The translations under genes were made by a program, and so were the position numbers. The notes beneath the pieces were generated by a model that was not told the origin of the DNA, did no database searches, and saw only the letters and a list, made by a program, of their open reading frames with translations. Below are positions 8,498-42,385 of a stretch of 64,000 bases of DNA, piece by piece. Source of the stretch: Candidatus Methylomirabilis limnetica (GTDB lineage Bacteria > Methylomirabilota > Methylomirabilia > Methylomirabilales > Methylomirabilaceae); assembly GCF_003044035.1 (NCBI RefSeq), contig NZ_NVQC01000023.1:77301-141300 (forward strand), read 5' to 3'. The number at the start of each line of letters is the position of its first letter. The first letter of the stretch is position 1.

Positions 8498-8530
8498 TCT
8501 CGATGATATCTTCTTGTTGCGAGGATTACT

Positions 8531-9058
8531 TTACGAGACAAAGACCCACACCGTGCCCCTCCATCGCTCGATCGAGCGTTCAACTGTGAGCTTGAGCCCC
8601 ACCCGATAAGGCGCCTCGATCGACTTGCCTCCTGACGCCACTGGCTTGCCGTCTTTGGCGAGGGCGATGACCGTCACCCGGATCGTGCTATTGGGCTCAA
8701 TGGTGGTGGGCTCCGTTGACGACCCGTCCGGCCCAGCCTTCACCCCAATCGGGTACGACATACTGTCTGCCGTGATGAATATCCCCTCTGTCCAGACCAC
8801 CCGGATAGTAGAGGCGGTAGGATTTGAGAAAGTGAGACTCACCTCTGCTGATCCAGCATTCGCTTGATCAATCTTGAACGGCACAGGACCCATCCCCTGG
8901 GCAGACTGAACCGTCACCTCATGCTTGAGCGGAGACAGCCTGATCGGAGACTTTATCGACCTGAGCTCTGGCGGCAGGAACTGACACCCTGACAGCCACA
9001 ACAGGGCCACCAACCCTCCCATACCTGCGATCCTCGACAAAACCCTATCAGACAACAT
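8531..9058 (-). CDS. hypothetical secreted/lipoprotein
   Basis: Signal peptide with LWLSGC lipobox. Beta-rich composition, no known motif. Confidence 0.4.
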   Translation of the reverse strand: MLSDRVLSRIAGMGGLVALLWLSGCQFLPPELRSIKSPIRLSPLKHEVTVQSAQGMGPVPFKIDQANAGSAEVSLTFSNPTASTIRVVWTEGIFITADSMSYPIGVKAGPDGSSTEPTTIEPNSTIRVTVIALAKDGKPVASGGKSIEAPYRVGLKLTVERSIERWRGTVWVFVS

Positions 9059-9145: not shown

Positions 9146-9216
9146 GTAACTACTCAGGTGTTTAGGCTGTAGGCTGAAGGCTGTTAGCCGCTGCGCATAG
9201 ACCGAATCAAGGCGCC
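9146..9216. repeat. MITE-like element, truncated copy (left TIR plus part of subtype-B core)
   Basis: gtaactactcaggtgtttaggctgtaggctgaaggctgttag followed by gcgcatagaccgaatcaaggcgc, matching the 37337 and 36024 copies. Confidence 0.6.
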
Positions 9217-10662: not shown

Positions 10663-11970
10663 TTAGATGTACTTTTTCGCTGCCCGTTGTTTCCATATCA
10701 TCGGGAGGAGTAGGTTCAGGACGTCATCGACAGTGACGATCCCTCTGAGCTCCCCCCCCTCATCCACCACCGGCACGGCCATTAGATTGTACCTGGTGAA
10801 GGTCTCGGTGACCTCGCGCAGGCCGGTCTCCGGCCGAACACTGATGGTTTGCCGCTCCATGATCTCATCAAGCCGCTGGCTCTGGTCGGCCAGGATCAGC
10901 TCCCGAAGGCTCAGTACCCCTACCAGCCGATCCAGGTCGTCGGTCACGTAGATGTAGTAGATAGTCTCGGCCTCGGCCCCCTCCACAGATCGGAGCCGAC
11001 CAATCACGTCGGCCACTAGGAAGTCTGGCCGCAGAGCAAACGCCTCTGTGGTCATGAGCCCACCGGCGGTATCTTCCTCGTGCGTGAGCAGCTCAACCAC
11101 ATCCTGGGCACCATCTTCCTCCATCGTATCGAGGAGCTCCTGCGCCTTCGCCTCCGGCAGGTCGCTCAAGATGTCGGCCGCCTCATCAGGCTCCATGCGC
11201 TCCAGGATATCGGCGGCCTGCTCACTCTCCATCATCTGGACCATCGAGGCTTGAACCTCCGGCTCCGTCTCGGTCAGCGTCTCGGCGGCGGTCTCTTCGT
11301 CTAAGGACTCCAACACCCCTGCTCGCTCGCTCGGACTGAGTTCCTCGATGATGTCGGCGATGTCAGCCGGATGCAGCTTCGCCAGTTTGGCATAGGTTGC
11401 GCGTCGCTTGGTCTTGGTCAGCTCAGTCTCTACCGGCTCGACAACATCCCAGGAGATCGTCTCACGTTCCAGGTGGGTCTTGAACAGGCTCGCGATCTGC
11501 TCAGCCATTGCCTCGGAGCCGAGATGCCTGAGTAGGCCACGCAGACCTGCCTCGACCGCCACAAGCTGCAGCCGCCCTTCTACCTCCTGGAATTCAAGAT
11601 CGTTGACCCGGATCACCTTGCAGCGCTTGGTATCCACCACCTTATGGTCCAGGAGGCTCTGCGCCAGCTCCATCTCCTCAGGCCGCAACGGAACAGGCTG
11701 AAGCGCCTTAGCCGCTTGAGACAGATGAATCGCCGCCGGCCCCCGCTCAATACGCGCCACAGCCTCCCACGGCAAAATCAGCTCTTCCTTCTCGGATGTC
11801 AGGATCGCGAGCTTGGTCACCGGGGGCAAGGCCCCCAACGGTAAGAGGATCAGGTCCTTAAGGTGACCCACAAGCTGCCCATCGGTATCGAGTACCGGAC
11901 AGCGACGCAACGCGGAGAAGAGGAGAGGCATACTCTCCGCCGGCATTTGACCCTCTACCTCCCCCTTCAT
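10663..11970 (-). CDS. MgtE N-terminal domain + tandem CBS-domain protein with no membrane pore
   Basis: Acidic MgtE_N helical region (EELSPSERAGVLESLDEETAAE...) followed by two CBS motifs. Ends at ...MIWKQRAAKKYI with no TM segments. 25 bp upstream of the NRAMP gene. Confidence 0.7.
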   Translation of the reverse strand: MKGEVEGQMPAESMPLLFSALRRCPVLDTDGQLVGHLKDLILLPLGALPPVTKLAILTSEKEELILPWEAVARIERGPAAIHLSQAAKALQPVPLRPEEMELAQSLLDHKVVDTKRCKVIRVNDLEFQEVEGRLQLVAVEAGLRGLLRHLGSEAMAEQIASLFKTHLERETISWDVVEPVETELTKTKRRATYAKLAKLHPADIADIIEELSPSERAGVLESLDEETAAETLTETEPEVQASMVQMMESEQAADILERMEPDEAADILSDLPEAKAQELLDTMEEDGAQDVVELLTHEEDTAGGLMTTEAFALRPDFLVADVIGRLRSVEGAEAETIYYIYVTDDLDRLVGVLSLRELILADQSQRLDEIMERQTISVRPETGLREVTETFTRYNLMAVPVVDEGGELRGIVTVDDVLNLLLPMIWKQRAAKKYI

Positions 11971-12590: not shown

Positions 12591-12625
12591 TGGTAACCCT
12601 CCCTACGATTTTTACAAACCACAAC

Positions 12626-12762
12626 GTAACTACTCAGGTAGATAGGCTGAAGGCTGAAGGCTTTTAGGGGTGAGTAATGCGCGATCAAAGAAAACTCAGA
12701 AAAGGTCTTGAATGGCTCGATTCGTGCCTTGCGAGATAATTTATAACCTTCAGCTCAGTTAC
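12626..12762. repeat. MITE-like element (subtype A core, right TIR degenerate)
   Basis: gtaactactcaggtagataggctgaaggctgaaggc ... ggtcttgaatggctcgattcgtgccttgcgagataatttataaccttcagc. Confidence 0.7.
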
Positions 12763-12880: not shown

Positions 12881-12944
12881 AAAAACATACCACATTTTAT
12901 TTAATGATTTCCCGCCTATCACTGAATGGTTACTTCTTTACGTT

Positions 12945-13072
12945 CATTTTCGTTGAGGGTCGATACCCTGCGGCTTGCCGCGAGTTCGTCATACCGGCGG
13001 AAGCCGGTATCCAACAGGGCCGACTGGATTCCCGCATATCCAGTACGGGGCAGGCTTGTCAAGCACGGAATG
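12945..13072. repeat. REP-2 structured repeat (multi-hairpin, reverse orientation)
   Basis: ggtcgataccctgcggcttgccgcgagttcgtcataccggcggaagccggtatcc...gtcaagcacggaatgac. Contains the 8-bp stem ataccggc-GGAA-gccggtat. Confidence 0.65.
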
Positions 13073-13168
13073 ACAATCAAAAGAAAAGGACATCTGGCGC
13101 ACTATCCTCGTTTGTCCGTAGGCAGGAACGCAGCACACCTGCCGCATAGGAGGCGCAAGTTCTGTAGC

Positions 13169-17107: not shown

Positions 17108-17165
17108 AGAAACCAGCTTTCAGCTATCAGCAGCCAGCAATGCACGACTCCGCAGCAAGCTGCGG

Positions 17166-17346
17166 GGTTTCATCTTCTGTTCTGGCCCGTCATTCCGTAC
17201 TTGACACGCCTGCCCCGTACTTGATACGGCCTGCCCCGTACTCGATACGGGGGGGGAATCCAGCCGGGCCCTCTGGATACCGGCTTCTGCCGGTATGACG
17301 AACTTACGGCAAGCCGCAGGGAATGAACCCCCAGTGGATTCAAGAA
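17166..17346. repeat. REP-2 structured repeat (forward orientation, with duplicated gcctgccccgtacttgatacgg module)
   Basis: gtcattccgtacttgacacg...ggataccggcttctgccggtatgacgaact...gggaatgaacccccagtggattcaag. Confidence 0.65.
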
Positions 17347-17381: not shown

Positions 17382-18548
17382 TTACAGCACTCGCTTGAGG
17401 CCATGAATGGCCTGGCGGGTCCGGTGTTCGTTTTCCACCAGGGCGAATCGCACATACTCGTCCCCGTACTGTCCGAATCCGATCCCCGGGGACACGGCAA
17501 CCTTCGCCTTGTCGAGGAGGAACTTCGAAAATTCCAGAGACCCCATGGTCCGGTACGACTCAGGGATCTTTGCCCAGACAAACATGGTTCCCTTCGGCTT
17601 CGACAGATTCCACCCGATCCGGTTCAGCCCATCTACCAGCGCATCGCGCCGCGTCCGGTAGATCTCAACCGTCTGCCCCACGCATTCCTGCGGGCCGTTC
17701 AGCGCGACGATCGCCGCGATCTGGATCGGCTGGAACATCCCGTAATCCAGGTAGCTCTTGAGCCGCGTGAGGGCTGCGATGATCCGCGGATTGCCAACAC
17801 AGAAACCGACCCGCCAGCCCGGCATGTTGTAGCTCTTGGAGAGCGTAAAGAACTCCACCCCGATCTCCTTTGCCCCAGGTACTTGCAAGAGGCTTGGTGC
17901 CTGATAGCCATCAAAGGTCAGGTCCGCGTAGGCAAGATCGTGGATCAGGATCAGGTGGTGCTCCTGAGCGAACGCCACCACCTTTTCGAAAAAGGCGAGG
18001 TCCACGGTAGCGGTGGTGGGGTTGTGGGGAAAGCTCAGGATCAGCAGCTTGGGCGGTGGCCAGCTCTCCCGATGAGCAGCCATCAGCGCCCCATAGAAGT
18101 CGGTGCCCTCTTCAAGACGAACGCTGCGGACGTCCCCCCCGGCGATGATCACGGAGTAAGGGTGGATCGGGTAGGTCGGACTTGGCACCAATGCAACATC
18201 CCCGGGTTCCACTACCGCCAAGGCCAGATGCGAAAGTCCCTCCTTGGCGCCGATGGTCGCAATCGCCTCCCGCTCGGGATCGATCTCAACCCCATATCGC
18301 CGCCGATACCAATCAGCGATGGCCAGCCGGAGTTTCGTAATCCCGCGCGATGCGGAGTACCGATGATTCCGAGGGTTCCTGGCTGCCTCACAGAGCTTCT
18401 CGACGATGTGTGGAGGGGTTGGCAGGTCGGGGTTGCCCATCCCGAAGTCGATAATGTCATCGCCACGAGCGCGCGCCTTGACCTTCAGCTCATTCACGAT
18501 ATTAAAGACATACGGGGGCAACCGACTGATTCGGTGGAACTCCTCCAT
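17382..18548 (-). CDS. PLP-dependent aminotransferase, class I/II
   Basis: Fold I aminotransferase pattern with candidate PLP Lys in [15 protein letters not shown]. 388 aa. Confidence 0.8.
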
Positions 18549-18757
18549 CTGCGCTCCTTTTGGTCACCGTGGCGACCGCTCATCTCTATGGAAAACTCGC
18601 CCTCACGCTACCAAAAGGAGCTAATACTGTCAATATGAAAGAGGGCCTGTGCGGGTTCATGGTAGTCTGCGGGTGACTCCGGCGATGGCGGCGGGAATTG
18701 CGGATCAAGCGTGGGGAGTCGCTGATCTATTAGGGGGGATAAAGTGGACCAGAAGAG

Positions 18758-19009
18758 CTACCGAAGAAGAGGCAAATGCCTTTTCGCGCACTCCAACTCA
18801 ATTCCAAGTAGACGGGTCATCTGTCTGACGTGTCCAATTTGAATTACGGGATCCCGTCCCCCGTGTTCACCGGTTGGCAATCCGCGAAAAACAAGCCCAT
18901 TGTGATAAACCCAAAAATGATGCTTTTTCCGTTCGTATCTGAAGCCTGGGGCACAGGCAGTGAGCATTGCCAAGACGTTCTTAAACTCTACCTGCCCGAA
19001 CGATGACAA
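18758..19009 (-). CDS. HicA-like toxin (mRNA interferase family), putative
   Basis: 83 aa. KKHHFWVYHNG...LPTGEHGG...IQIGHVRQMTRLLGI resembles the HicA H-x-k-l-x-h-G...H-x-G...l-lkqlGl pattern. Confidence 0.4.
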   Translation of the reverse strand: MSSFGQVEFKNVLAMLTACAPGFRYERKKHHFWVYHNGLVFRGLPTGEHGGRDPVIQIGHVRQMTRLLGIELECAKRHLPLLR

Positions 19010-19020
19010 AGACCACCACG

Positions 19021-19494
19021 CTAGGCGGCTACGGCCATCTGCGGCTCTAAAACGTTATCCTTCGGGTTGAAGACACGCAACAGCTTCACCTGTACGGAAC
19101 GTGGGGAATTGGCGGGCCTTTTCTGGAGACCCTTAGAAAGAGCCTCAGCCGTGATCTTTCCAGCGCGAACATCAAGAACAGCGGCATGCCATTCTTCCTC
19201 TGTTGGACAATTTATCCCCTTGAAGAATCGACCCACTTCCGCCTTGAACGAATTGAAGTCCTTAGCGTCTTCGGCAATATCGAACAGAATGACGGTGAAT
19301 GCTTTTCGAAACTCGCGCTGCGCCTCCATGAATGTGGCACCTCCCGCCGACAAGTCGCCAGGCTGGACGCCATACATCCACCAACCGTCAGATTCCTCGA
19401 CCGCTAAGCCGCGACCATGAACGGTAATACCTGCCAAAAAGCCCTCTCCCGATACCTTATCCTGAAAAGTGAACAGCAAAGGATACTGATTCAT
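19021..19494 (-). CDS. HicB-like antitoxin (UPF0150/RNase H-like fold), putative
   Basis: 157 aa, immediately upstream of the HicA-like ORF. N-terminal YPLLFTFQD...GEGFLAGI...GATFMEAQREF resembles HicB. Confidence 0.35.
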   Translation of the reverse strand: MNQYPLLFTFQDKVSGEGFLAGITVHGRGLAVEESDGWWMYGVQPGDLSAGGATFMEAQREFRKAFTVILFDIAEDAKDFNSFKAEVGRFFKGINCPTEEEWHAAVLDVRAGKITAEALSKGLQKRPANSPRSVQVKLLRVFNPKDNVLEPQMAVAA

Positions 19495-19724
19495 GCGATA
19501 CCCTCATTGCTCAAACATTGATTGGTATATCTCTTAATTGCGATTTTTTATAGTATACCCCCAGACGACGCTGTCAAGAAAAATGTTATCTACAAGTTAA
19601 ATATGCTACCCCATAAGGTATTAACCAACATCCATGCCATGAGCAAAATCAGCCCAATCAAATTAGGACACTACCGAGGGCCTGAAGTAGGCCGCCGCGA
19701 AGCCTGATGTCCCGACGCGAAAGC

Positions 19725-19925
19725 TACATCCGTTCGGGAGCGGAGACGCCAAGCAACCCAAGCGTGTTGGCCATGACCACGCGAAGGGCGGCCACAAGCG
19801 CCAGGCGTGCATGCGCGAGATTCCTATCGGCGGAGATAATCCGATGGCGGGTATATGGTAGCCGTGAAACTGCGCGGCGAGGTCGTGCAGATAGATGGTG
19901 AGCCTGTGCGGCTCCAGCACCTCTG
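19725..19925 (-). pseudogene. displaced and decayed copy of the argS 3' end (last ~66 codons), frameshifted
   Basis: About 88% nucleotide identity to 28041-28240 (the true argS 3' end), starting exactly at the stop codon. A 2-bp insertion near 19853-19856 breaks the frame. Confidence 0.8.
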
Positions 19926-19933
19926 CAATTCGG

Positions 19934-22477
19934 CTAGACCGGTGAATTGAGCAGCTTCTTTAGATCATCTCGCCAGTCACGATCCGCGTATTCTCCCTCG
20001 TCCAGGACTTGAAAGCGGAATGTCTCGTCCCGGAAGTCTTCCGCGAGTTTCTGCCAGGGGACTTTCTGGCCAACTTTTTGAAAGTAGCTGCCCACCGTCC
20101 GCTTGTAGGTTGTGTCTTCGTTTCCTTTGAGATGCTTGCCCTTGCTTTCGACCACAACCACAGAGGCAACCGGCTTTTTATTGTGACCCTGTTGAACCAC
20201 GAAATCCGGATAAATCTTATTCCGCTTGTAGCCTTGGATCGAGAAACAATCCACACCAACGAGATTTCGATACCACCACAGGACTTCGGGATGCTTGTCG
20301 AGATACAGTGCGACCGACTTCTCGTACTCATTGAGGTCGTCCGGCACGTAATCAAAGAGGGACCGTTGGACCGGCTCGTGATCGACATGTATCAGCTTCT
20401 TTGTTCCCCGTATCTCAATCTTGGGTGGAATTTCAAAGCGCCCTTCCACACATTCAAGATAGAAGCCGAGCCGTTTGTTTTTGAACAGCGCCTCGAACGC
20501 TTCTTGCGTTTGACGGTCCGTCCCACGCTGGATCAATCCGACAATCTTTTCACGCACCTCAAACTTAACCAGTCCCAACCGGCCTGAAAGCTCCGGGGTG
20601 AGCTGATACAGACGATCAGTCACCCGACTGACGATCTCCCGTAGCTGCTTCTGGCTGAAGTAATTAAACGGCAGGCTGGCTACCAACCAGGCCTTCACCT
20701 GCTCATCAGTCTCCAGGGTAACAGATTCGCGTTCCGCCACACGCTCAAGATCATCTTGTTCAAGGGTCAGGCGATAGATGGAATCCTTTGCCGCTTCGAT
20801 CGCTGCCGTCATGTTCCAATCTATTCCGGCGTAATCGAACCGTGTGACATCGACCTGACTGAGCAAATGCCGGAAATAGTCGAGGACATCGTACGTGTCT
20901 CCGTGCTTGACGCAAAAGCGGGGCAGATAAATCTTACCCTCGAACTCCCGATAGTAACGGCGGAATTCTTCACGAATAGTAGTCACGCGCTTCTGTCCGG
21001 CTTTGCCGTCGTCCGTACTGCGGTCAACGACGCTGGCCGCGTCGCCTTCGTAGCCCTCCTGTTCCAGCGCCTTCTTGACCTCACGAGAAATATCCGCCGC
21101 CTTTCGCCGCAAACAAAACACATAGCTCTCGTTCAGCTCGTCGAACGGCGTCCTCTCCACATACGGCTGCCGAAGCACCCGCCCTACCAGTTGGGTCATA
21201 CTCTGCTGGCTGCCGGTGTTGTTCAGGGAGACCAGGATATAGGCGAAGGGGCAATCCCATCCCTCCTGCAAGGCTGCCTTGGTGATAATCCATTCCACGC
21301 GGCATCCTTCGGCGAGGAGATCAATGCCCTCAATATCGTCAGTGTCCGAGGTCTTGATGGCGATGGCCGATTCATGGACACCCTCTCTCTGCATCAGATG
21401 TTGCTTCACGTCTTCGCTGTGGACGAAGCCGCTGTCCCGCTGGTCCTTCCCTGTCCGTTCGACTTGGACCAGCACGATCGGGCGAATGAGTTTCTCGCTT
21501 TCCCTGTAATGCTTCTCCGCGAGTTTCGCTAAGTGCTCTCTCTTTTCTCGCGCCTGCGTCAGGCAATTCTTCCAAGACGGCTGGTTGGCGTTGGCGATGT
21601 TGATCGGCAACTTGATCATCTGTTCACCAAGCAGTTCTTTGCCGGTTACCCGAACGAGGACGTTGGCTTCCTTATGTGGCGTGGCGGACAGTTCGACCAC
21701 CACTGAGGCATTGAATCCCTCAATGGTCTTCCGAGCGAGCTCGCTGGTGGCCTTGTGTCCTTCGTCCAAGATGACCGGCGGCTCGCAGAGACGGACCAAG
21801 TTGCCTAGCGAGGTTTTGACCAACCTCTCGTCCTGGTCGTCGTCATCCCCCAGCATGTCTAGGTTCAGGAACTGAACCTTGAGCGCCCCGTGCTTTTCTG
21901 GATCATTTTCGGGCGGGAAATGCTGGACGATGTTGCCCCCGCTATCGCGGAAGAACTTGAGCTGCTCGCGCGTCTCGCGGTTGGTACTGGCGAGTTTCAG
22001 GAGTAGGATATTTAGGTTGCTGCGTAACTGCCCCGGCGTCAGGCGAAAAATCTCGTGCTTTTCCCACACCTCAATACGGCGTGACAGCACGAACTCCAAT
22101 GATTCGCGATAGAAGTGCCTACGGTCGCGAAGCGCCTTGAGCGTGTCCTTGTATATCTGATCGCTGGGAACCACCCACAACACCAACCCAGAGCCGTTGC
22201 GGTTCTTCAGAATAGTTTGATAGACAAGCCCAAGAATCTGAGTAGCCAGTAAAGTCTTCCCGCCGCCGGTGGGTACCTTGATGCAACACGTAGGGAGGTC
22301 TTTTCCTAGACCGTTCTTGCGTGGTCGATACTCGCCGGGCAGATGAAACAGTTTCTTCGCTTTATCCCAAGCAGCCAAGGATGCGTACTGACTCCCGGCC
22401 GTTTGCTCCGAAGCCAACGCGTCCAGAAAGAGTTTAACTTCGCTTATGACGCGTTCCTGATAACGCTTCAGTTGCAT
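19934..22477 (-). CDS. res: Type III restriction endonuclease Res subunit (SF2 helicase + nuclease)
   Basis: Walker A VPTGGGKT and DEGH box. 847 aa. Lies immediately downstream of mod. Confidence 0.85.
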   Translation of the reverse strand: MQLKRYQERVISEVKLFLDALASEQTAGSQYASLAAWDKAKKLFHLPGEYRPRKNGLGKDLPTCCIKVPTGGGKTLLATQILGLVYQTILKNRNGSGLVLWVVPSDQIYKDTLKALRDRRHFYRESLEFVLSRRIEVWEKHEIFRLTPGQLRSNLNILLLKLASTNRETREQLKFFRDSGGNIVQHFPPENDPEKHGALKVQFLNLDMLGDDDDQDERLVKTSLGNLVRLCEPPVILDEGHKATSELARKTIEGFNASVVVELSATPHKEANVLVRVTGKELLGEQMIKLPINIANANQPSWKNCLTQAREKREHLAKLAEKHYRESEKLIRPIVLVQVERTGKDQRDSGFVHSEDVKQHLMQREGVHESAIAIKTSDTDDIEGIDLLAEGCRVEWIITKAALQEGWDCPFAYILVSLNNTGSQQSMTQLVGRVLRQPYVERTPFDELNESYVFCLRRKAADISREVKKALEQEGYEGDAASVVDRSTDDGKAGQKRVTTIREEFRRYYREFEGKIYLPRFCVKHGDTYDVLDYFRHLLSQVDVTRFDYAGIDWNMTAAIEAAKDSIYRLTLEQDDLERVAERESVTLETDEQVKAWLVASLPFNYFSQKQLREIVSRVTDRLYQLTPELSGRLGLVKFEVREKIVGLIQRGTDRQTQEAFEALFKNKRLGFYLECVEGRFEIPPKIEIRGTKKLIHVDHEPVQRSLFDYVPDDLNEYEKSVALYLDKHPEVLWWYRNLVGVDCFSIQGYKRNKIYPDFVVQQGHNKKPVASVVVVESKGKHLKGNEDTTYKRTVGSYFQKVGQKVPWQKLAEDFRDETFRFQVLDEGEYADRDWRDDLKKLLNSPV

Positions 22478-22487
22478 GAGAGGATTG

Positions 22488-24158
22488 CTACTTCAAGTTG
22501 AACGGGACAATCATGGGCCGCACCGTCCGCTTCGTTTTCTGCTCAAACTTCGCCAGGTCATCACGGTGCACCCAAATTTTCTCACAGTAAACCACCAAGC
22601 TCCTGTTCTTCTCCATCTTGTCGAGACCCTTGAGCCATTCCATGTCCAATCGGCGGTCTTCCTGACCGTCTGGAGTGTAGAGCAGATAGTAACTGGTCCC
22701 GTGATGTTCACCGATCTTCCCGGTTTTCTCGTTCATCGCCTTCCGGTCGAAGTCTCGGCTGGTCTCCGTATAAAAGATGTACTTGGCGAGATCGTCATAG
22801 CCGGGCAACTGCTTGCCCCAATCGCGGTATTCACCGAAGAGCGGTTTGCCGACGCAGACATAGGCGAAGGAGCCGCCTAGCCCCGTAACTTTTTCTTTCT
22901 TACCCTTCGGGCTCGTATACGTAAACCCCTGAATGACCCGCCGGACCCGCTCCGCTGTGATCTTCTGGCAGATGTTGAACTTGTTCTTCTCCTGCTCTTT
23001 CATTTCGTAGGGAATCTGAACAAGAATAAACCTCCGGTTGCCGCCGTCTTCCTCGTTCAGCCTCAATACTGCATGAGCGGTCGTTCCGGACCCGGCAAAA
23101 GAGTCAAGAACAAAATCGTCTCCCACGGCTACCTGTGCCACCAAGTCCCGAATAAGTAGAGACGGCTTCGGGAAAGGTAATACTGTACCGATCTGGTCTC
23201 CAAATATTTGCCGTATCTCTTCCGTTCCGTCGCTGGTAAAGACTCCGTCAATCACACTCGGGAATCCGAGAACGCCTGATTCCAGTTCTTTAAGGAACAC
23301 CTTCTCTCGTGGCCGTCCTCCTGCTTTTCGTGGCCAAAAGATTCTTTCTTCGGCAATCTTTTGGTCCATCGTCGTCTTACTGCAAATCCATCCTGTTGCC
23401 GGAGGACATCGATACACCTCTTTAGTTTTGGGGTTAACAAAGTCGTAGTGAAGATTGGGTCGCTGTTCTTTAGTCGCTTTGCCTAAAAGGCTACAGCTTG
23501 TCCAATCACCACGTGTATCCTTGTCAGGATTGGAATATTTCGTCTCACTACGCCTTTTTCCAAGAAGCCGACCATCCGAGGATTTCCGATACGCCAGGAT
23601 GTATTCGTGGTCAACCGAAACTCCCGTTTTGGGTCGAGTGTCCGGGAAGTTTCTCGATTTCCAAATAAGCACACCCAGCCTGTTTTCTGGGCCGAAAATC
23701 TCATCCATCATCATCCGCAGATTGTGGACTTCGTTATCGTCGATACTGATGAATATGGCCCCATCGTCGCGAAGAAGTTCCTTCAATAGCTGGAGGCGCG
23801 GATACATCATGCAGCACCACTTATCGTGGCGAGTAGCGTCCTCTCCCTCTTTGCCCACCGCTCGCCCTATCCACTCTTTGAACTGCGGCTGAGTGAGGTT
23901 GTCGTTATAGACCCACCCTTCATTGCCGGTATTGTATGGCGGATCAATATAGATACACTTGATCCGTCCCGCGTGGGTGGGAAGAAGGGCCTTTAAGGCG
24001 ATGAGGTTGTCACCCTCGATGATGAGGTTGCCGTCGAGTGCTGGCTTCTCGCCCTTCCCTAGGACCGACAGCTTGGCGTCGAACTCCAGGGTATGGTGCG
24101 AAATCGTGTGGTGATAGCACTCAATCGCGGTCTTCCCTTTGAACTGCAAAACCGGCAT
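22488..24158 (-). CDS. mod: Type III R-M Mod DNA N6-adenine methyltransferase
   Basis: IYIDPPYN catalytic motif IV then LDSFAGSGTT motif I (beta-class order). 556 aa. Adjacent to res. Confidence 0.85.
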   Translation of the reverse strand: MPVLQFKGKTAIECYHHTISHHTLEFDAKLSVLGKGEKPALDGNLIIEGDNLIALKALLPTHAGRIKCIYIDPPYNTGNEGWVYNDNLTQPQFKEWIGRAVGKEGEDATRHDKWCCMMYPRLQLLKELLRDDGAIFISIDDNEVHNLRMMMDEIFGPENRLGVLIWKSRNFPDTRPKTGVSVDHEYILAYRKSSDGRLLGKRRSETKYSNPDKDTRGDWTSCSLLGKATKEQRPNLHYDFVNPKTKEVYRCPPATGWICSKTTMDQKIAEERIFWPRKAGGRPREKVFLKELESGVLGFPSVIDGVFTSDGTEEIRQIFGDQIGTVLPFPKPSLLIRDLVAQVAVGDDFVLDSFAGSGTTAHAVLRLNEEDGGNRRFILVQIPYEMKEQEKNKFNICQKITAERVRRVIQGFTYTSPKGKKEKVTGLGGSFAYVCVGKPLFGEYRDWGKQLPGYDDLAKYIFYTETSRDFDRKAMNEKTGKIGEHHGTSYYLLYTPDGQEDRRLDMEWLKGLDKMEKNRSLVVYCEKIWVHRDDLAKFEQKTKRTVRPMIVPFNLK

Positions 24159-24633
24159 CTGTCGTTGGACTCCTATGAGTTTGCTAGGGGAATGGGTGGA
24201 GGCTAGACCACGGCTAACTATCCGTCAAGCAAAAACAAAAAGGCTCGAATCGTTCCTAGTCGAACCTTCGCGAGAGGTTGAGGGTCAGGTTTTGACGTTA
24301 ACAATTGAAGTCCCTCACGTGAATAAACGGCCCTTATCCGTCCTCGCTCCCAATTCAGATGCGACTCCACCGCTCCCTGCCCGTTGGCCCATCTGCTCCC
24401 GTCGCCTCGCACGGTTCCGTCTGCCGAACGCCAAGTCGTCCGCTGCCCCAGGTATCGGTCACGCTGAGGAGATTACCGTTGAGATCGTACCCGAATTGGG
24501 TGAAACCGTTCAAGGGATCGTCGATGGCCCGAGCAATAAGTCAACACTCAAGTCTGACCCCGAATTTCTGACCCCTGTGTGATTGCAAGACCTGTCCCTC
24601 TAACCTCCGATCGATTTCGGCCGGGTCCGAATC

Positions 24634-27060
24634 CTATCGCCCGTGGCAGGCTTTATATTTCCTCCCGGAGCCGCACGGACAATGCTCATTCCTGCCAATC
24701 TTCCGCGACGAGGTCGCATGTATGACTTGCTGCTCGATGTGTGACCGGCCTCGAGAGAGCTCCGCTTCGGAGAAAGTGCTAGGCGTTATGATGCGAATCT
24801 TTCTTATGAGATAGGTGCTCTGATTCTTTAGTTGGACCACAAGCCATCTGGTGCTGCCGCCTTGTCGCATCCGCGCAGCGCACCTGACCAGTTCCTCATT
24901 GAAGTTGTTTTCCGAGGCATGGGTGACACTCAGCCCGATTGAGTTGCTGCTGAACGGCAGATGGAGACTTGGCTGTCTGCTTGCACTCCGTCTGCCCTCT
25001 AGAGCTACGAGATTCGCTTCGAACTCGTCTCTGCCTTCTTGGCCCATAGAAAAGAGGATCGAGGCGACCTCGAATCTCCCAGGCAAGCGAGATGTACTTA
25101 GTGCTTCTAAGAAGCCGCTCATCTTTGGGGGTAGGTTCTGTTCCGGAACGCGTGGAGACTCGCCGGCGTAACGTGCAGCAAAATAGAAGTCGATGTGCTT
25201 CATATAGGAAGGATCAAACGACATGTGATCCATTCCTCTGATGGGCAGCTCGTGGTATTGGTTCAGCTTCTGATAGAGGGCGACATGCTCTATTTCGTCA
25301 TGCTGCGACATGACGGTCTCTGATGATGCCTGGAGTCGCTGCTCCAAGAAATGCACGAACTGGAGATCCTTACCAATAAAGAGCTCGGCGACGATTCGAA
25401 GGTCATCAATTGATATGTGCCACGGAAAGGACTTACTGAGTCCCGGGTCGAGGATGGATAGCACAGCGATCTTGGCGCCGACCCAACCAAGGAACTCTCG
25501 GGTAACTACAACCCGAAAGACTCTCCGGTAGTCGGCGATGCGCAGTCTATGTACGACGTTCTTTCCTGACTCATCGTAGAAGACAGTTTCGGGTTGGGAC
25601 TTGATGTAACGCTCAGCTCTTTCTGATTGACGCTGGCCCGCGATGATCAGGTCAGAAAGATCGCTCGCTAGGCTTTTCGGGGCGCCTCGGCTCGCCGCGC
25701 CCGACAGGCCGCCGGATTTGACTTCGACGAGAAAGAGAAGATCATCGACGCCCAACATGATGTCTAATTCGGTCAGGTCGCCAGGACGGTCGGGATTCGG
25801 ATAATAGACCTGCTCAAAGACAAAATCCGGTCGAAGCACACTACTCAAGAGCTCCTTCGATACCTTCTCGATGTGATCCGAATGTTTCTTCGCCATCATC
25901 GTGCCGTCGCCAGCTCTCTTGCTGAGAAGGTCTCCTTCAATGATCTCGGCAATGCGATCTTCGAATCCTGAGTGATAGAACGAATAGAACCGATCGCCGA
26001 CCTGGAGAAACGGCTTGAAGTGCCAAAGGGAGTCGGACAACGGACTCAGGTCATCGTGCTTTGTTAGCGTCGGATCTCGGAGAACTGCTTCTCCTGGCCT
26101 GACTGACAACGTCGATAGAAGTGATCTCGGAAGCGACGTCAAATCGGTTATGTCGAAGATTGCCGGCGTGAAAGTTAGTCGAGCTTTCTCTTGCGCCTCG
26201 GTATGAGCGTCTGCAAACTCGGGTGACGCAACCGCTTGTCTGGTGCGCTCCATGTTCTCTTCCGTGGCGTCTGAGTCCACGGCATACCCTTTCTCTCTGA
26301 GGCGCTCCATCAGGGCATTCGTAGCGCTCATGGCGTCGGCGTATCTGCCCAGCACTCCTGTCTTTTGATACTCCTCGAGGGCCTGTAGTCCGTGCATCAG
26401 GTCCTCGACGCTAATTCCATAGAGCTTCTTGATCCACGGCTCGTAGGGAAACAGTGAGTCTTTCCAATAGTCCCGAAGGAAGAAGGGATAGCGTTGGACC
26501 CGGATCGCTAGCCTAGCCGTGTCCAAATGAAATCGAAGGTCGTCGATTTCAGAAGGCGGAGTCGCCTCAGTCCTTCTTGTAAAGAGATACTGTTGTGTTA
26601 GACGCAGGACATCGAGCGTGAGCGACCAGACCGCCTCCCACTCTTCCTCAGTCGGCTCAGCCCCGGTCGTGTTCGCTTCTGTTCGCGCGATCAGGTACTG
26701 CAAATACTCCACGCCCGGCAGAGAGAATGACTCTTCAGGACCAAACTCGTTCTCAGAGCGGTACTTCAAGAATAGAGGCAGCAGCACGTAGGCGGCGCGG
26801 TGCAGCAGCAGAACAGCATCGTACTTGTGGATCAGGTCCTGGAGGTTGCCAACTTTCTCTGCCAGCTCCTCGTGAATTCTCCTGTTCGCGTCCGCCGCTC
26901 TCCTCAGAAACTCGCGGTGCTCTTCCGGGGTCGACTGGTTCGAGAGCAAAACACTTCGCCCATAGCGGGCGATACTCAGTGGCCCACGGCTAACAACTTC
27001 ATCGGGCGTTGGGCGAATCCACTTCGTTCTGCCCTTTTTTCGGCTGCTCTTCTTTCCCAT
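24634..27060 (-). CDS. large uncharacterised protein: basic N-terminus, central PD-(D/E)xK nuclease-like motif, C-terminal SEC-C zinc motif
   Basis: 808 aa. Central ...FEQVYYPNPDRPGDLTELDIMLGVDDLLFLVEVKSGG (E..D..EVK). C-terminus GRNEHCPCGSGRKYKACHGR. N-terminus MGKKSSRKKGRTKW. Confidence 0.6.
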   Translation of the reverse strand: MGKKSSRKKGRTKWIRPTPDEVVSRGPLSIARYGRSVLLSNQSTPEEHREFLRRAADANRRIHEELAEKVGNLQDLIHKYDAVLLLHRAAYVLLPLFLKYRSENEFGPEESFSLPGVEYLQYLIARTEANTTGAEPTEEEWEAVWSLTLDVLRLTQQYLFTRRTEATPPSEIDDLRFHLDTARLAIRVQRYPFFLRDYWKDSLFPYEPWIKKLYGISVEDLMHGLQALEEYQKTGVLGRYADAMSATNALMERLREKGYAVDSDATEENMERTRQAVASPEFADAHTEAQEKARLTFTPAIFDITDLTSLPRSLLSTLSVRPGEAVLRDPTLTKHDDLSPLSDSLWHFKPFLQVGDRFYSFYHSGFEDRIAEIIEGDLLSKRAGDGTMMAKKHSDHIEKVSKELLSSVLRPDFVFEQVYYPNPDRPGDLTELDIMLGVDDLLFLVEVKSGGLSGAASRGAPKSLASDLSDLIIAGQRQSERAERYIKSQPETVFYDESGKNVVHRLRIADYRRVFRVVVTREFLGWVGAKIAVLSILDPGLSKSFPWHISIDDLRIVAELFIGKDLQFVHFLEQRLQASSETVMSQHDEIEHVALYQKLNQYHELPIRGMDHMSFDPSYMKHIDFYFAARYAGESPRVPEQNLPPKMSGFLEALSTSRLPGRFEVASILFSMGQEGRDEFEANLVALEGRRSASRQPSLHLPFSSNSIGLSVTHASENNFNEELVRCAARMRQGGSTRWLVVQLKNQSTYLIRKIRIITPSTFSEAELSRGRSHIEQQVIHATSSRKIGRNEHCPCGSGRKYKACHGR

Positions 27061-27171
27061 GAGGTCTCAAATCAGAATTATCAGAGAAGCCGTGGAGTTG
27101 CACAAAGAAAGGGGGAGGCTAGGCAACATATCGTGTAGCCAGGGGTCAGCCCCCATAATCTTGTGAGTTTG

Positions 27172-27621
27172 TCAGTTCTTGACCTCCAATTCGCGTAACG
27201 GCACGACAATGCTATGACCCCTCAGCTTTTTCACCATGACCTCGTCGGCAGTGATGAGCGGGTATCCCAGTTGCTCACCAAGAGCCACATAGAGGGCGTC
27301 ATAGATGGTGATCTTGTAGGCCCAGGCAATGGCGTTGGCTTTACGCAGTAGTTGAAAATCAGTATCTGTGACATTGAGGTGTAACCCTTCAAGCCCGGCT
27401 ATGGCTCTTGCTCCATGCTCCTCCTTGGCCCTTGAACCGAAGCGGATCGCGTTGAGAACCTCCAAGAAGGTGAGTTCCGTCACATAGATGGTGCAGCGCC
27501 CTGATACATGGAACTCTTTGAGCGCCAGAGCCCGGTCTCGGTCAGGTTCATCGTGCTCAACAAACCATTTAATGAGAACCGACGCATCTACCACGTAACC
27601 CTGGTGATATGCGGGTATCAT
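27172..27621 (-). CDS. vapC: PIN-domain toxin VapC
   Basis: YVVDASVLIKW (Asp1), LTFLEVLN (Glu), IYDALYVALGE and ITAD acidic residues. 4-nt overlap with the upstream antitoxin gene. Confidence 0.75.
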   Translation of the reverse strand: MIPAYHQGYVVDASVLIKWFVEHDEPDRDRALALKEFHVSGRCTIYVTELTFLEVLNAIRFGSRAKEEHGARAIAGLEGLHLNVTDTDFQLLRKANAIAWAYKITIYDALYVALGEQLGYPLITADEVMVKKLRGHSIVVPLRELEVKN

Positions 27622-27890
27622 CGATCTCCCTTTAAATTTGTATCGCGGAAGCGGCGAATGATCGCTACGGGATCCCAATCCCCAAGCTCTTTAGCCAGGT
27701 CATCAATCCTATGGGAGGCCTCCTGCATCTTCTCCCGCTTTTCCTCTTCTTCCCGCTTCTTCCGTTTCGCCTGCAAGTATTCTTCTAGCGCAGCCTGAAT
27801 GAGAGCGCTGCGATTGGTTCCCTCATCTTTCGCCTCCTCGTTGATCTCATCGAGCAATGCATCTTTCAAGAAAACGTTTACGCGTGCCAT
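27618..27890 (-). CDS. vapB: ribbon-helix-helix (CopG-like) antitoxin VapB
   Basis: MARVNVFLKDALLDEINEEAKDEGTNRSALIQAALEEY, an RHH N-terminus. ATGA overlap with vapC. Confidence 0.7.
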   Translation of the reverse strand: MARVNVFLKDALLDEINEEAKDEGTNRSALIQAALEEYLQAKRKKREEEEKREKMQEASHRIDDLAKELGDWDPVAIIRRFRDTNLKGDR

Positions 27891-28039
27891 GACGCACCTC
27901 CTATAACATCACTAAAGCACATCACCGATGTGTTGTCAAGTATGTTTTAGTGCGACAATCCCTTATTTAAGAAATGCTTAGTGATATCAAGAAGTTGAGA
28001 GAGGGGCGAGGAAAGAATTGCGTAATCGTGACCGTGCAA

Positions 28040-29713
28040 CTACATCCGTTCGGGAGCGGAGACGCCCAGCAACCCAAGCGCGTTGGCCATGACCACGCGA
28101 AGGGCAGCCACCAGCGCCAGGCGAGCGCGCGTGAGATTCCTATCGGCGGAGATAATGCGATGGCGGGTATAGTAGCCATGAAACTGCGCGGCGAGGTCGT
28201 GCAGATAGGTGGTGAGTCTGTGCGGCTCCAGCGCCTGCGCCGCCCCGATCACCAGTTCCGGGTAGAGCGCCAGTTGCTTAATCAACCCGATCTCTTCCTG
28301 CAGATCGAGCGACTCGAGGGCATCCTCTGGGGTGGGAGCTGGAAACTGAGCCTTTGCCGCCTGCCGGAGAATGCTGCACAGGCGTGTGTGCGCGTACTGC
28401 ACGTAGTAGACGGGGTTTTCCTCGGACGCCGACTTGGCGAGCTCCAGGTCAAAGTCCAAATGGCTGTCGCACCGTCTGGTGAGAAAGATGAAGCGCGCCG
28501 CATCACGGCCCACCTCCTCAACCAGCTCGTCCATCATCACGAACTGCCCGGATCGCTTGGACATCCGGACCTGCTCGGTCCCTCGCATTAAACGGACGAG
28601 CTGCACGATCAGGACCCTGAACGCCTCGGGAGGATGGTCGAGCGCCTGCATTGCAGCCCGCATCCGCGCAATGTAGCCATGGTGGTCCGGGCCCCAGAGA
28701 TCGATCACCTGGTCAAACCCGCGAGCGAACTTGTCCTGGTGATAGGCGATGTCCGGAAGAAAATAAGTGATATCGCCGTCGCCCTTCACAAGGACCCGGT
28801 CTTTATCATCGCCAAAGGCGGTCGAGCGAAACCACAGGGCGCTCTCATGCTCATAGAGGAAGCCGCGCTCCCGCAGCGCCTCCATCACCCGCTCTGGCTC
28901 GCGGCGTTCCCGCAGGGCCCGCTCGCTAAACCACCCATCAAAGGTGACCCCGTATGCCTCAAGCGAGGCCCGCTGCCAGCGGAGGATCCGCTCGACCGCA
29001 AAGCGACCCAGTCGATCGCGGCGCTCCGGCTCCGGCGCTAAGAGCGCCTCGGGCCCGTGCTGCTCCAGAAACTCGCGGGCCAGATCGATCAGATAGTCAC
29101 CCGGATAGGCCTCCTCTGGCATGGGGCAGTCCTCACCCAGGCGCTGACGGCACCGCACCTCCATCGCCAACGCGAGGTTGCGGAATTGGTTCCCCGCATC
29201 GTTCACATAGTACTCGCGGTACGGCCGATGCCCGATGGCCTCTAAGAGCCTAGCGATGGCATCACCGATCGCCGCGGCCCTGGCACTGACCACGACGAGC
29301 GGGCCGGTCGGATTCGCGCTGACAAACTCCACGAGTACGCGGCGCCCGCCGCCGACATCAGCCCTGCCGTACGTCGATCCAGCTCGGAGGATCTCCTGAA
29401 CGAGATGACGCCAGAACGGCCTGGCGATAAAGAAGTTCAGATAGCCGGCGCCCGCCACCTCGACGCGATCGACCAGATCGGAAGGAAATGTTGCTGAGGC
29501 GGCAATCTGGAGCGCGATCTCGCGAGGCTTCTGCCTCAGCGCTTTCGCCAGGCCGAAGGCCAGCGTGGTAGAGAGATCGCCGAAGGCCTGGTCGCTCGGA
29601 TATTCCCACGTAAGCTGTGCGGGAGCATCCTGCGCAAGCCCGCTCTCTAAACCAGCCTGCTTGATGGCGGTCAGAAGCGATTTCGTCAGGTTTGTTTTGA
29701 GAGCACTAATCAT
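28040..29713 (-). CDS. argS: arginine--tRNA ligase
   Basis: 557 aa, class I aaRS with KMSKS-like MSKRSG. Anticodon-binding C-terminus ends in ...APERM. Confidence 0.9.
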   Translation of the reverse strand: MISALKTNLTKSLLTAIKQAGLESGLAQDAPAQLTWEYPSDQAFGDLSTTLAFGLAKALRQKPREIALQIAASATFPSDLVDRVEVAGAGYLNFFIARPFWRHLVQEILRAGSTYGRADVGGGRRVLVEFVSANPTGPLVVVSARAAAIGDAIARLLEAIGHRPYREYYVNDAGNQFRNLALAMEVRCRQRLGEDCPMPEEAYPGDYLIDLAREFLEQHGPEALLAPEPERRDRLGRFAVERILRWQRASLEAYGVTFDGWFSERALRERREPERVMEALRERGFLYEHESALWFRSTAFGDDKDRVLVKGDGDITYFLPDIAYHQDKFARGFDQVIDLWGPDHHGYIARMRAAMQALDHPPEAFRVLIVQLVRLMRGTEQVRMSKRSGQFVMMDELVEEVGRDAARFIFLTRRCDSHLDFDLELAKSASEENPVYYVQYAHTRLCSILRQAAKAQFPAPTPEDALESLDLQEEIGLIKQLALYPELVIGAAQALEPHRLTTYLHDLAAQFHGYYTRHRIISADRNLTRARLALVAALRVVMANALGLLGVSAPERM

Positions 29714-33132: not shown

Positions 33133-33272
33133 GTAACTACAGGTAGATAGACTGAAGGCTGAAGGCTGTTAGTGGTAGGAACCGAGAAGGTCTTGAACGG
33201 CTCGATTCGTGTCTTGCGAGATATTTATAACCTTCAGTCTTCAGCCTTCAGCCTAAACACCTGGGTAGTTAC
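33133..33272. repeat. MITE-like element, complete (subtype A)
   Basis: Left TIR gtaactacaggtagatagactgaaggctgaaggct. Right TIR agccttcagcctaaacacctgggtagttac. Confidence 0.75.
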
Positions 33273-33293
33273 ACTGATACCAGTGATTGCCAT

Positions 33294-34187: not shown

Positions 34188-34204
34188 TGTAATGTCCCCT
34201 GAGT

Positions 34205-34346
34205 CTCTTTGCTTTGATTGTCATTCCGGGCTTGATAAGCCTGCCCCGTACTTGATACGGGGGGAATCCAGTCGGGCCCTATGGATACCGGCTTCCGCCG
34301 GTATGACGAACTCGCGGCAAGCCTCGGGGAATGAACCCCCAGTGGA
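34205..34346. repeat. REP-2 structured repeat fused to a MITE remnant
   Basis: gtcattccgggcttgataagcc...ggataccggcttccgccggtatgacgaactcgcggcaagcc...gaacccccagtggattcaaga. Confidence 0.65.
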
Positions 34347-34433
34347 TTCAAGATCTTTCTGAAGTTTTGCGTGATCACGCATGACTTACACCTAACAGCC
34401 TTCAGTCTTCAGCCTATCTACCCGAGTAGTTAC
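34347..34433. repeat. MITE-like element, internal region plus right TIR only (left half replaced by REP-2)
   Basis: tctttctgaagttttgcgtgatcacgcatgacttacacctaacagccttcagtcttcagcctatctacccgagtagttac. Confidence 0.7.
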
Positions 34434-34473
34434 GCTGAAACATCTACACGGCAGAGACGGGGTCACGTCCTGA

Positions 34474-36023: not shown

Positions 36024-36189
36024 GTAACTACTCAGGTAGATAGACTGTAGGCTTTTAGACTGTAGGAACGCACCATGCGAGACCATACCAAGCCGAGAGC
36101 GCGTGAACTGGCCGACGAAGCGCCCTGATTCGGTCCGTGCGCAACTACTAACAGCCTTCAGCCTACAGCCTAAACACCTGAGTAGTTGC
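36024..36189. repeat. MITE-like element, complete (subtype B core, encodes MRDHTKPRARELADEAP on +)
   Basis: gtaactactcaggtagatagactgtaggc ... gcctacagcctaaacacctgagtagttgc. Core is the reverse complement of the 37337 copy. Confidence 0.75.
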
Positions 36190-37336: not shown

Positions 37337-37504
37337 GTAACTACTCAGGTGTTTAGGCTGTAGGCTGAAGGCTGTTAGTCTTTGCGCATGGACCGAATCA
37401 AGGCGCACTTCGTCGGCCAGTTCAAACGCTCTGAGCTTGGCATGGTCTCGCATGGCGCGTTCCTACAGTCTAAAAGCCTACAGTCTATCTACCTGAGTAG
37501 TTAC
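37337..37504. repeat. MITE-like element, complete (subtype B, inverted relative to 36024)
   Basis: gtaactactcaggtgtttaggctgtaggctgaaggctgttag...ctacagtctatctacctgagtagttac. Confidence 0.75.
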
Positions 37505-39701: not shown

Positions 39702-39878
39702 GTAACTACTCAGCAGTAACTACTCAGGTGTTTAGGCTGAAGGCTGAAGACTGAAGGCTCTGCATTATCTCGCAAGGCACGAATCGAGCCATTCAAGATC
39801 TTTTCGGAGTTTTGTATGATCACGCATGACTTACTTCTAAAAGCCTTCAGCCTTCAGCCTATCTACCTGAGTAGTTAC
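39702..39878. repeat. MITE-like element, complete (subtype A), with 14-bp tandem duplication of the left tip
   Basis: agtaactactcagc agtaactactcaggtgtttaggctgaaggctgaagactgaaggc...ccttcagccttcagcctatctacctgagtagttac. Confidence 0.75.
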
Positions 39879-40040
39879 GTTCAGCAGTCAGCCGTCAGCT
39901 TTCAGCAACAACAAGGAAAGAACGAAAATGGCCGACCATTTCCAAATCAAAAGCTTGGACCTCTGTGGTTAGTTTGCCTCATCTTGCTGACGGCTGAGCG
40001 CTGACCGCTGAATGCTATTTTCTGAGGAGCAGAACACGCT

Positions 40041-42094: not shown

Positions 42095-42261
42095 GGCGTC
42101 ACCTCACCCCCGCTTTCACTAACCATCGCCCACGCTTAACCTGCGTCACCCCTCGTGCCTGCCGCGCCTGTAGCTGCTTGAGTGATAGCGCCATAGCATG
42201 AGCCTCACATAAGCTCGCAAGACGCGAATCAAGTCAATGAACTACCCCGCAGCAAGCTGCT

Positions 42262-42385
42262 TCGGTATCGTCTTCTGTTCTGGCCCGTCATTCCGTGCTT
42301 GACACGGAATCCAGCCGGGCCCTCTGGATACCGGCTTCCACCGGTATGACGAACTCGCGGCAAGCCGCGGGGAATGAACCCCAGT
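42262..42385. repeat. REP-2 structured repeat fused to a MITE remnant
   Basis: cttctgttctggcccgtcattccgtgcttgacacggaatccagccgggccctctggataccggcttccaccggtatgacgaactcgcggcaagccgcgggg. Confidence 0.65.

Follow-up and report, generated by a model that had tools for sequence, protein, structure and literature searches.

Proposed displacement of the argS 3' end at a defence and toxin-antitoxin hot spot in Candidatus Methylomirabilis limnetica

How does an essential gene such as argS, which encodes arginyl-tRNA synthetase, come to have its 3' end twice on one contig, with 8.1 kb of foreign DNA in between? The question is raised by a 64-kb stretch of Candidatus Methylomirabilis limnetica (contig NZ_NVQC01000023.1, positions 77,301 to 141,300), hereafter the window, in which an intact argS is followed by toxin-antitoxin (TA) and restriction-modification genes and then by a second, orphan copy of the argS 3' end. 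A first-pass annotation of the sequence had read this arrangement as the footprint of an integrative element that supplies a replacement gene end. We compared the locus with its counterparts in related genomes and favour, with a probability somewhat short of an even chance, a homology-anchored, integrase-free displacement of the argS 3' end that would have joined two alleles of a hot spot. All positions are in window numbering, argS positions with a minus sign (e.g., -197) are nucleotides (nt) upstream of the stop codon, and relatives are given as locus labels (L001, L098 and so on).

The argS gene lies at 28040-29713 on the minus strand and encodes 557 amino acids (aa). All three domains of the enzyme are present (Pfam Arg_tRNA_synt_N, tRNA-synt_1d and DALR_1, the DALR domain being matched over 1-117 of 117), and the protein is equal in length to its orthologues and 95% identical to that of a Candidatus Methylomirabilis metagenome-assembled genome (MAG). 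The repeat copy attached to argS (28040-28240, minus strand) consists of the last ~66 codons in frame. The orphan (19724-19925, minus strand) corresponds to argS from -197 to the stop codon and is frameshifted by a 2-bp insertion. Aligned over 196-198 nt, these direct repeats are identical at 183 of 196 positions (93.4%) with one 2-bp indel; the 88% identity given in the first-pass annotation was too low. BLAST returned 92.5% over 199 columns (E about 1e-79), and a repeat finder reported the pair in two parts with a 2-bp offset, 19724-19855/28040-28171 and 19854-19922/28168-28236, each at 93%. The edges are sharp, with the stop codon on one side and a point ~197 nt upstream of it on the other. 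On the plus strand, CTA, the complement of the argS stop codon TAG, opens both copies, in agreement with the earlier description of two repeats that start at the stop codon, span the last ~66 codons and bracket the island. With its two extra bases removed, the orphan encodes the same 65 residues except for 4-5 changes that are absent from all orthologues. The orphan, with its frameshift and unique amino-acid changes, is a displaced argS 3' end in decay, and the earlier distinction between an intact attached copy and a dead distal copy holds.

Two copies of one sequence could also reflect an in-situ tandem duplication, a repeat of the repetitive extragenic palindromic (REP) type or an assembly artefact, and nothing beyond the existence of the two copies speaks for any of these. 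Immediately beyond the stop codons of the two copies, the sequences show no relationship, starting with the first base, and the copies differ at 13 sites, mostly synonymous, with eight of the 13 substitutions at third codon positions. The repeat occurs exactly twice in the window, both times as argS coding sequence and unlike the window's dispersed repeats, as expected if it derives from argS and not from a REP family. Further, five independent assemblies (L081, L082 and L091-L093) agree on the entire structure at 99.96-100% identity. The orphan junction is also found, at ~94% identity, in a different lineage, L098, whose orphan has no frameshift and none of the amino-acid changes of the window orphan. 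The duplication is therefore neither chance nor artefact. These results exclude tandem duplication, a REP repeat and misassembly, whose joint probability we put close to nil.

The bracketed DNA is compositionally foreign. Its GC content is 0.534, compared with 0.590 for the rest of the window, and its tetranucleotide distance from the rest is 0.243. For 77 windows of the same size, this distance was 0.119 +/- 0.024 (maximum 0.169), so that the island exceeds them by over five standard deviations, a clear departure from the flanks. All genes between the two argS copies point in the same direction as argS.

To place this island, we gathered alleles of the spacer between argS and the neighbouring aminotransferase gene by a degenerate repeat pattern, exact-protein look-ups and ArgS homologues; the domain labels for L083, L113, L114 and L116 come from domain searches of their genes. 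The aminotransferase gene neighbours argS in every allele long enough to reach it. The spacer is empty in L095 and L099 (91-94% nt identity to the window; 215 bp) and in L096 and L101 (about 77% nt identity; 50 bp), which are relatives and not members of the same species and in which argS lies close to the aminotransferase promoter. In L083 (93% nt identity), the spacer holds a hicBA-like pair and then DUF433, and in L094 (about 92%) it holds 2.8 kb ending in DUF433. L113 (ArgS 86%) carries vapBC, T5orf172/MUG113, DUF4258 and a 69-aa gene, L114 and L115 (M. oxyfera; ArgS 85%) carry a Phd-like antitoxin and an AbiEii-like protein, and L116-L118 (ArgS 86%) carry DUF4258 and the 69-aa gene. Other DNA follows argS in L005, L097, L100, L102 and L104 (77-86%), whose contigs stop before the aminotransferase gene. 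Thus, at least six other fillings of the spacer were found, mostly TA cassettes. All complete alleles regain homology at one point, which precedes the -35 box of the promoter of the aminotransferase gene by ~10 nt. From these comparisons, the spacer appears to be a multi-allelic hot spot that swaps TA and defence cassettes, rather than the site of one insertion. With empty alleles known from relatives and a repeat that does not belong to a REP family, the earlier proposal of an inserted segment is left standing at this point.

Several alleles have features of their own. The 215-bp spacer of L095 (~853-1067) and L099 (~4470-4684) contains a ~60-nt near-perfect GC-rich palindrome (GGGCGGGCATAAACCCC...GGGGTTTATGCCCGCCC) and, directly after the argS stop codon, the hairpin GCGAAG-CGGAAGC-CTTCGC; this empty spacer is therefore not pristine ancestral sequence. 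The T5orf172/MUG113 protein of L113 (13075-13818 of that locus) has a homing-endonuclease-associated HNH repeat and is possibly a free-standing homing nuclease. A ~260-nt insertion that resembles a miniature inverted-repeat transposable element (MITE), with the palindrome GGTCGGGTTAGCGCAGCGTAACCCGAC, splits the sequence between argS and vapB in the same locus (~11697-11960). In four different Methylomirabilis lineages (the MAG loci L001, L002 and L004 and the metagenome locus L097), the contigs end inside the last 13-172 nt of argS, which suggests that repeats or population heterogeneity at the argS end routinely break assemblies.

Which of the two argS ends is accompanied by the chromosomal flank? 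Flank B, as we call the 65-85 nt that come next to the attached copy beyond its stop codon (27965-28039, minus strand), is common to island-free Methylomirabilis species: BLAST aligned it at 82-86% identity with the post-stop flank of L114/L115 (M. oxyfera) and L116-L118, and it is also alignable in L113, where the MITE-like insertion interrupts it, and in L005. We did not find argS orphans in L113, L114 or L116. In L113, vapBC occupies the same position as in the window and is followed by different cargo, again without an argS duplication. An early reading, in which the attached copy was a replacement end borne by the island, was dropped when flank B was found in M. oxyfera and its relatives. 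The orphan is followed in gene orientation by the 8 nt CTTTCGCG (19716-19723, minus strand), the same 8 nt that follow the argS stop codon in the empty alleles of L095 and L099. Note that this match is not significant as an unanchored local alignment and takes its weight from its position directly at the stop codon. A local alignment of flank B with the 50-nt spacer of the outgroup empty alleles did not score convincingly above shuffles (18-251 of 2000).

The cargo itself, as examined with Pfam and PADLOC, agrees with the first-pass annotation, which had listed Type III mod/res, vapBC and a PD-(D/E)xK/SEC-C protein. Next to flank B, a 90-aa vapB-like ribbon-helix-helix antitoxin gene (27618-27890, minus strand; Pfam RHH_1 at 4.5e-08, RHH_5 and CcdA) overlaps a vapC-like PIN toxin gene (27172-27621, minus strand; Pfam PIN at 1.6e-14), which encodes 149 aa as called in L081 and has an open reading frame (ORF) reaching 27678. 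A PIN toxin is thus preceded by a small DNA-binding antitoxin, as in VapBC systems. The pair is ~78% identical at the nucleotide level to vapBC of L113, and this homology stops at ~27202. After the 808-aa gene (24634-27060, minus strand), a spacer with the mod promoter region (24159-24633) shows homology to the mod upstream region of L119 as far as 24262; a plus-strand ORF of 135-147 aa in this spacer had zero family hits and is a doubtful gene. The adjacent genes for the methyltransferase Mod (22488-24158, minus strand, 556 aa; Pfam N6_N4_Mtase, PADLOC MTase_III 1e-143) and the restriction subunit Res (19934-22477, minus strand, 847 aa; Pfam ResIII, PADLOC REase_III 3e-138) make up a Type III restriction-modification system. 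Homologues with 88-89% aa identity, each Res with its Mod, were found in two unrelated contexts (L119 and L120), and the nucleotide homology of res to these homologues stops 5 nt past the res stop codon. As read from the sequence, only 8 nt (19926-19933) lie between the res stop codon and the orphan, with the same junction in L098; the distance is 8-14 nt. Apart from the mod promoter spacer, the intergenic gaps of the island are no longer than ~150 bp and leave no free room for an integrase gene. The distribution of its parts in other loci shows the cargo to be a mosaic of independently mobile modules.

The 808-aa protein is the least familiar part of the cargo. Its sole Pfam hit is the C-terminal SEC-C zinc motif, and PADLOC models matched nothing beyond this tail. 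An AlphaFold2 model (predicted local distance difference test score of 87) had no whole-chain match in the PDB, and Foldseek returned local matches of the central domain to the PD-(D/E)xK nucleases VC1899, Can2, Card1 and R.BspD6I. D433, E446 and K448 are invariant within the family. These local matches and invariant residues make the earlier PD-(D/E)xK/SEC-C label reasonable. The family is highly conserved, and homologues with 40-66% identity occur across distant phyla (Accumulibacter, Omnitrophica, lineages of the candidate phyla radiation and Polyangiaceae). They always stand alone in variable neighbourhoods, in one case on their own in a conjugative region with a type IV secretion system and elsewhere beside other TA pairs. 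Such varied stand-alone contexts, together with the nuclease-type fold, rule out a hidden recombinase. On sequence and predicted structure, the gene is a candidate single-gene defence system.

We searched for an integrase or recombinase, or a remnant of one, among the called genes (Pfam labels, ~1-62.2 kb of the window) and the island ORFs, and found none; the only mobility genes among the called genes were fragments of DDE transposases at ~56.0-56.5 kb, unrelated to the island. Likewise, no recombinase was seen by ORF inspection of the variable DNA behind argS in L094, L097, L100, L102, L104, L005 and L083, and none is encoded in the other spacer alleles, including the gene contents of L113 and L114-L118. 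A tRNA scan of the window detected no tRNA gene, and Rfam gave no match in 15-32 kb. Two degenerate argS 3' patterns, with which a phage attachment site (attP) was sought, had zero matches in viral contigs. No autonomous element using an argS attachment (att) site was present among 80 genome loci, 11 metagenome loci and protein-anchored contigs. The first-pass annotation was thus right that the island has accessory functions only and lacks an integrase. In the literature, we found nothing useful on argS as an attachment site, a search term confounded with 'ARGs', and no paper on Methylomirabilis islands.

What sequence of events could have produced this locus? The recombination most likely proceeded without a dedicated integrase, along a pathway that we infer from the following observations. 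Two versions of the argS-aminotransferase locus would have been joined in the window lineage. One segment, beginning inside argS ~197 nt before the stop codon and comprising the argS end, flank B, vapBC, the 808-aa gene and mod-res, would now complete the essential argS gene. Left 8.3 kb downstream would be the second argS end, together with the flank that belongs to it and a HicB-like module. Being no longer selected, the displaced end would be free to decay. Host homologous recombination may have made the first join, with the argS block of highest nucleotide conservation (-220 to -141) as its anchor. The second join may have been illegitimate or 'additive', either by homology-facilitated illegitimate recombination or by single-crossover insertion of a circularised fragment.

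The anchor block is 96-100% identical across the genus, compared with 74-81% for the preceding block, and the edges of the displaced ends (~-197 in the window and ~-235 in L083) lie at its upstream border. It is the best anchor for recombination between diverged lineages and would equally suit an att core; this point is therefore neutral. In L083, a relic of argS (-235 to -150) stands after the hicBA-like cassette and is followed by remnants of a post-stop flank of the L094 type. This relic is a second, independent displaced argS end with different cargo. An orphan that lies downstream of cargo and is followed by the native flank of another allele was thus found twice, in L083 and in the window, where CTTTCGCG is the flank of L095/L099.

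Partial duplications also occur at mod in the two unrelated contigs with homologous mod-res. In L119, a 281-nt direct repeat (90%) of the mod 5' end (6169-6449 and 8334-8614) surrounds a 1.9-kb insert, and the additional copy is parted from the intact mod by HTH/Peptidase_M78 and DUF3368 genes (HTH, helix-turn-helix). In L120, a 192-nt repeat (86%) of an internal mod segment (7580-7771 and 8550-8741) surrounds an HTH gene. Both loci have a diverged partial mod copy just upstream of the intact mod, with no integrase among the called genes. The L083 relic and these mod duplications suggest recurrent integrase-free displacement of gene ends.

Recombination at the argS locus is active. The window and L098 are 98-99% identical over a module left of the orphan (18650-19494) that holds a 157-aa gene and an 83-aa ORF (98.9% in the region of this ORF), compared with 93% for the adjacent aminotransferase gene and 91.5% for the res end. 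This difference from the flanking core indicates a recent, separate transfer of the module.

We favour integrase-free displacement because no allele encodes an integrase, flank B and vapBC occur in species without an orphan, the cargo is modular, res abuts the orphan, L083 holds a second relic, argS offers a conserved anchor, mod shows comparable duplications and sequence has been exchanged across lineages. There is, moreover, a published precedent: homology-facilitated illegitimate recombination was put forward for the orphan 3' ends of effector loci of the rhs, contact-dependent inhibition (CDI) and type VI secretion system (T6SS) kinds (PMC5361080). Several points weigh against this explanation. 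Homology-facilitated illegitimate recombination is rare in experiments (PMC5361080), and it usually deletes recipient DNA instead of duplicating it. The parental alleles were not found, and Res homologues led only to unrelated contexts. A sliding-window comparison of argS gave no clear recombination breakpoint, and a 196-nt distance matrix, in which 11-13 differences separate the attached copy, both orphans, L001 and L005 from one another, does not mark one copy as foreign; with codon-position analysis added, the signals as to the foreign copy were conflicting or weak. A restored gene, a displaced end on the far side and a TA module at one end are also the classic footprint of integrase-mediated insertion; displacement without an integrase leaves an equal one. 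Finally, the contigs of L001, L002, L004 and L097 break in argS, and larger, integrase-bearing alleles could systematically stay unassembled.

The first-pass annotation had proposed such an insertion by a degraded or fixed integrative element. In its fuller form, a site-specific element resembling a prophage, an integrative and conjugative element (ICE) or an integrative and mobilisable element (IME) would have inserted ~200 nt before the argS stop codon and supplied a new 3' end. Its integrase module would have been lost by deletion, or it would always have been non-autonomous and mobilised in trans, and what is left would be a fixed island resembling a cis-mobilisable element (CIME). The foreign DNA between direct repeats, the restored argS, the displaced end and the empty sites in relatives all fit this proposal, as do precedents in phage 21 and e14 of icd (PMC12803456) and in CIMEs, which retain attL and attR once the integrase is gone (PMC5704250); integration and transfer genes are absent from the island too, whose repeats would in this reading be att sites. 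The orphan retains 8 nt of the flank of the L095/L099 empty allele, the prevalence of third-position substitutions looks as if both ends had once been functional in different lineages, the 5' edges of the two independent orphans fall within ~40 nt of each other, and the four contigs that break in the argS 3' region hint at more duplications. Against this stand the lack of an integrase in any spacer version or among the called window genes and the absence of the argS 3' end from the viral contigs searched. The supposed arm of the element, flank B, is the normal post-argS chromosome in species without the duplication, and the res stop codon is so close to the orphan that there is no room for an attachment-site arm. 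The two orphans also begin at different nucleotides. Instead of a coherent unit with conserved ends that recurs elsewhere, flank B, vapBC, the 808-aa gene and mod-res were found separately. The foreign composition, the empty alleles and the displaced end of the first-pass annotation thus stand, and its integrative element, the main rival, is in our view possible but doubtful.

Displacement without an integrase could also have run in the reverse direction. The allele with vapBC, the 808-aa gene and mod-res would then have been resident, and DNA from a relative, anchored by homology on the side of the aminotransferase gene and purF, would have introduced a 3' fragment of argS together with its flank and the HicB-like module, to be joined illegitimately just after res. 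Flank B is the genus-wide arrangement beside argS and vapBC of L113 has the same position, as expected of a resident allele. Further, the 157-aa module, at 98-99% identity between lineages with ~7% core divergence, must have moved recently, and of the six sites where both orphans depart from the attached copy, five agree with L001, the closest relative. The 98-99% block, however, does not take in the orphan (94%) or the res 3' end (91.5%), and transfer of the module may be a separate event. A donor allele with argS, the flank of the orphan and the 157-aa gene was not found, and the data are symmetrical as to direction. We consider this direction unlikely.

Hill in 1989 and Campbell in 1992 are said to have described how icd is kept intact by a supplied ~165-nt 3' end with mainly silent differences, while the displaced end persists as a pseudo-fragment at the far junction. 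The elements concerned, phage 21 and e14, have their integration sites inside icd of E. coli (PMC12803456). The argS island resembles them in that a segment has been inserted in the 3' part of a housekeeping gene. Unlike these prophages, which have their own integrase beside the att site, the island has no integrase or phage genes and a mosaic cargo, and its 'replacement' flank is normal chromosome in sister species. Streptococcal CIMEs, which are flanked by attL and attR, have lost integration and transfer genes and are often stacked by accretion at the 3' ends of conserved genes (PMC5704250). They are recognised through related autonomous ICEs or IMEs at the same att site, but the argS searches in Methylomirabilis turned up no such element. 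In CIMEs, the att repeats are also short and nearly the same, whereas the argS repeats are 200 nt long at 93% identity.

A mechanistic parallel is provided by rhs/CDI/T6SS effector arrays, in which an incoming 3' end with its cargo displaces the resident end to a downstream orphan without an integrase, and repetition of this step builds arrays (PMC5361080). In those arrays, the ends that are displaced encode polymorphic toxin domains and are retained on account of their immunity genes. By contrast, argS encodes an essential tRNA synthetase; its two ends specify nearly the same peptide, and no function is evident for the orphan. Hot spots of the defence-island kind, in turn, are single positions between conserved genes at which defence and TA cargo varies by lineage and empty alleles occur. 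The argS spacer is like them in its varied cargo and empty alleles. Descriptions of such hot spots do not usually include a duplicated end of a flanking gene, whereas here one allele, and a relic in a second, record the joint. The island between copies of a gene end, the defence hot spot and the orphan left by displacement are thus each of a known kind, here in an under-studied phylum. What is unusual is that the displaced end comes from an essential tRNA synthetase and that no recombinase is visible in any allele.

The comparison documents a multi-allelic defence and TA hot spot in an environmentally important, uncultured genus of methane oxidisers, with one allele that preserves a recombination joint. 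If no integrase was involved, displacement of gene ends would not be limited to polymorphic toxin loci and could seed defence islands beside core genes; it would also account for the tendency of Methylomirabilis MAG contigs to break at the argS end. With the partial duplications of mod, end displacement could be a general route by which defence islands are built. Tentatively, and with some doubt, we extend this to the NC10 phylum: the 3' end of an essential gene may serve as a recurrent integrase-free landing pad, at which the 80-nt argS block anchors each added 'argS end plus defence/TA cargo' and earlier ends are displaced as orphans. If a site-specific element was involved, argS would be added to the 3' ends of protein genes that serve as attachment sites. 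In practice, little follows from either reading beyond how an orphan argS fragment and a candidate stand-alone PD-(D/E)xK/SEC-C defence gene are to be annotated.

On the left side of the orphan, low GC content extends to ~18650. The AT-rich stretch noted earlier outside the left repeat was confirmed (19495-19715, minus strand; GC content ~0.49). It forms the promoter region of the 157-aa gene, with a promoter-like site facing this gene (TTGACA-16-TACTAT at 19577-19550). The 157-aa gene (19021-19494, minus strand) belongs to a large and widespread family (729 cluster representatives) that is uncharacterised and whose N-terminal fold resembles HicB/UPF0150, and searches with hidden Markov models gave no match. 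Its putative partner, the 83-aa ORF (18758-19009, minus strand), had no family hits and is not called as a gene in L081. Of the HicAB-like pair proposed in the first-pass annotation, the 157-aa member is weakly supported by its fold, and the 83-aa member is a putative partner. Beyond the module lie the promoter region of the aminotransferase gene (18549-18649, minus strand), which in all alleles forms the fixed proximal border of this variable spacer, with homology regained at GGCCCTCTTTCATATTGACAG, and the class I/II aminotransferase gene (17382-18548, minus strand; Pfam Aminotran_1_2, 2.5e-60), the conserved left neighbour. Between it and purF, the 21-nt unit GCCTGCCCCGTACTTGATACG is present twice in tandem at 95% identity (17208-17249).

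The window contains further repeats unrelated to that of argS. At least two families of dispersed intergenic repeats of 70-140 nt occur in both orientations and are 80-95% identical. They lie at 9146-9215, 12622-12754, 12943-13091, 17133-17345, 33133-33276, 34203-34437, 36024-36187, 37337-37504, 39716-39881, 42235-42484, 58247-58404, 62051-62215 and 62903-63061. One family ends in GTAACTACTCAGGT, and the other contains CCGGTATGACGAAC...GCAAGCCGC; they look like elements of the MITE/REP type. A 300-nt direct repeat (54590-54889 and 56851-57150; 81% identity) corresponds to two 87-aa CBM_48/AMPK1_CBM genes, and these bracket a Band_7 gene and two DDE_Tnp_ISAZ013 transposase fragments (~56036-56498).

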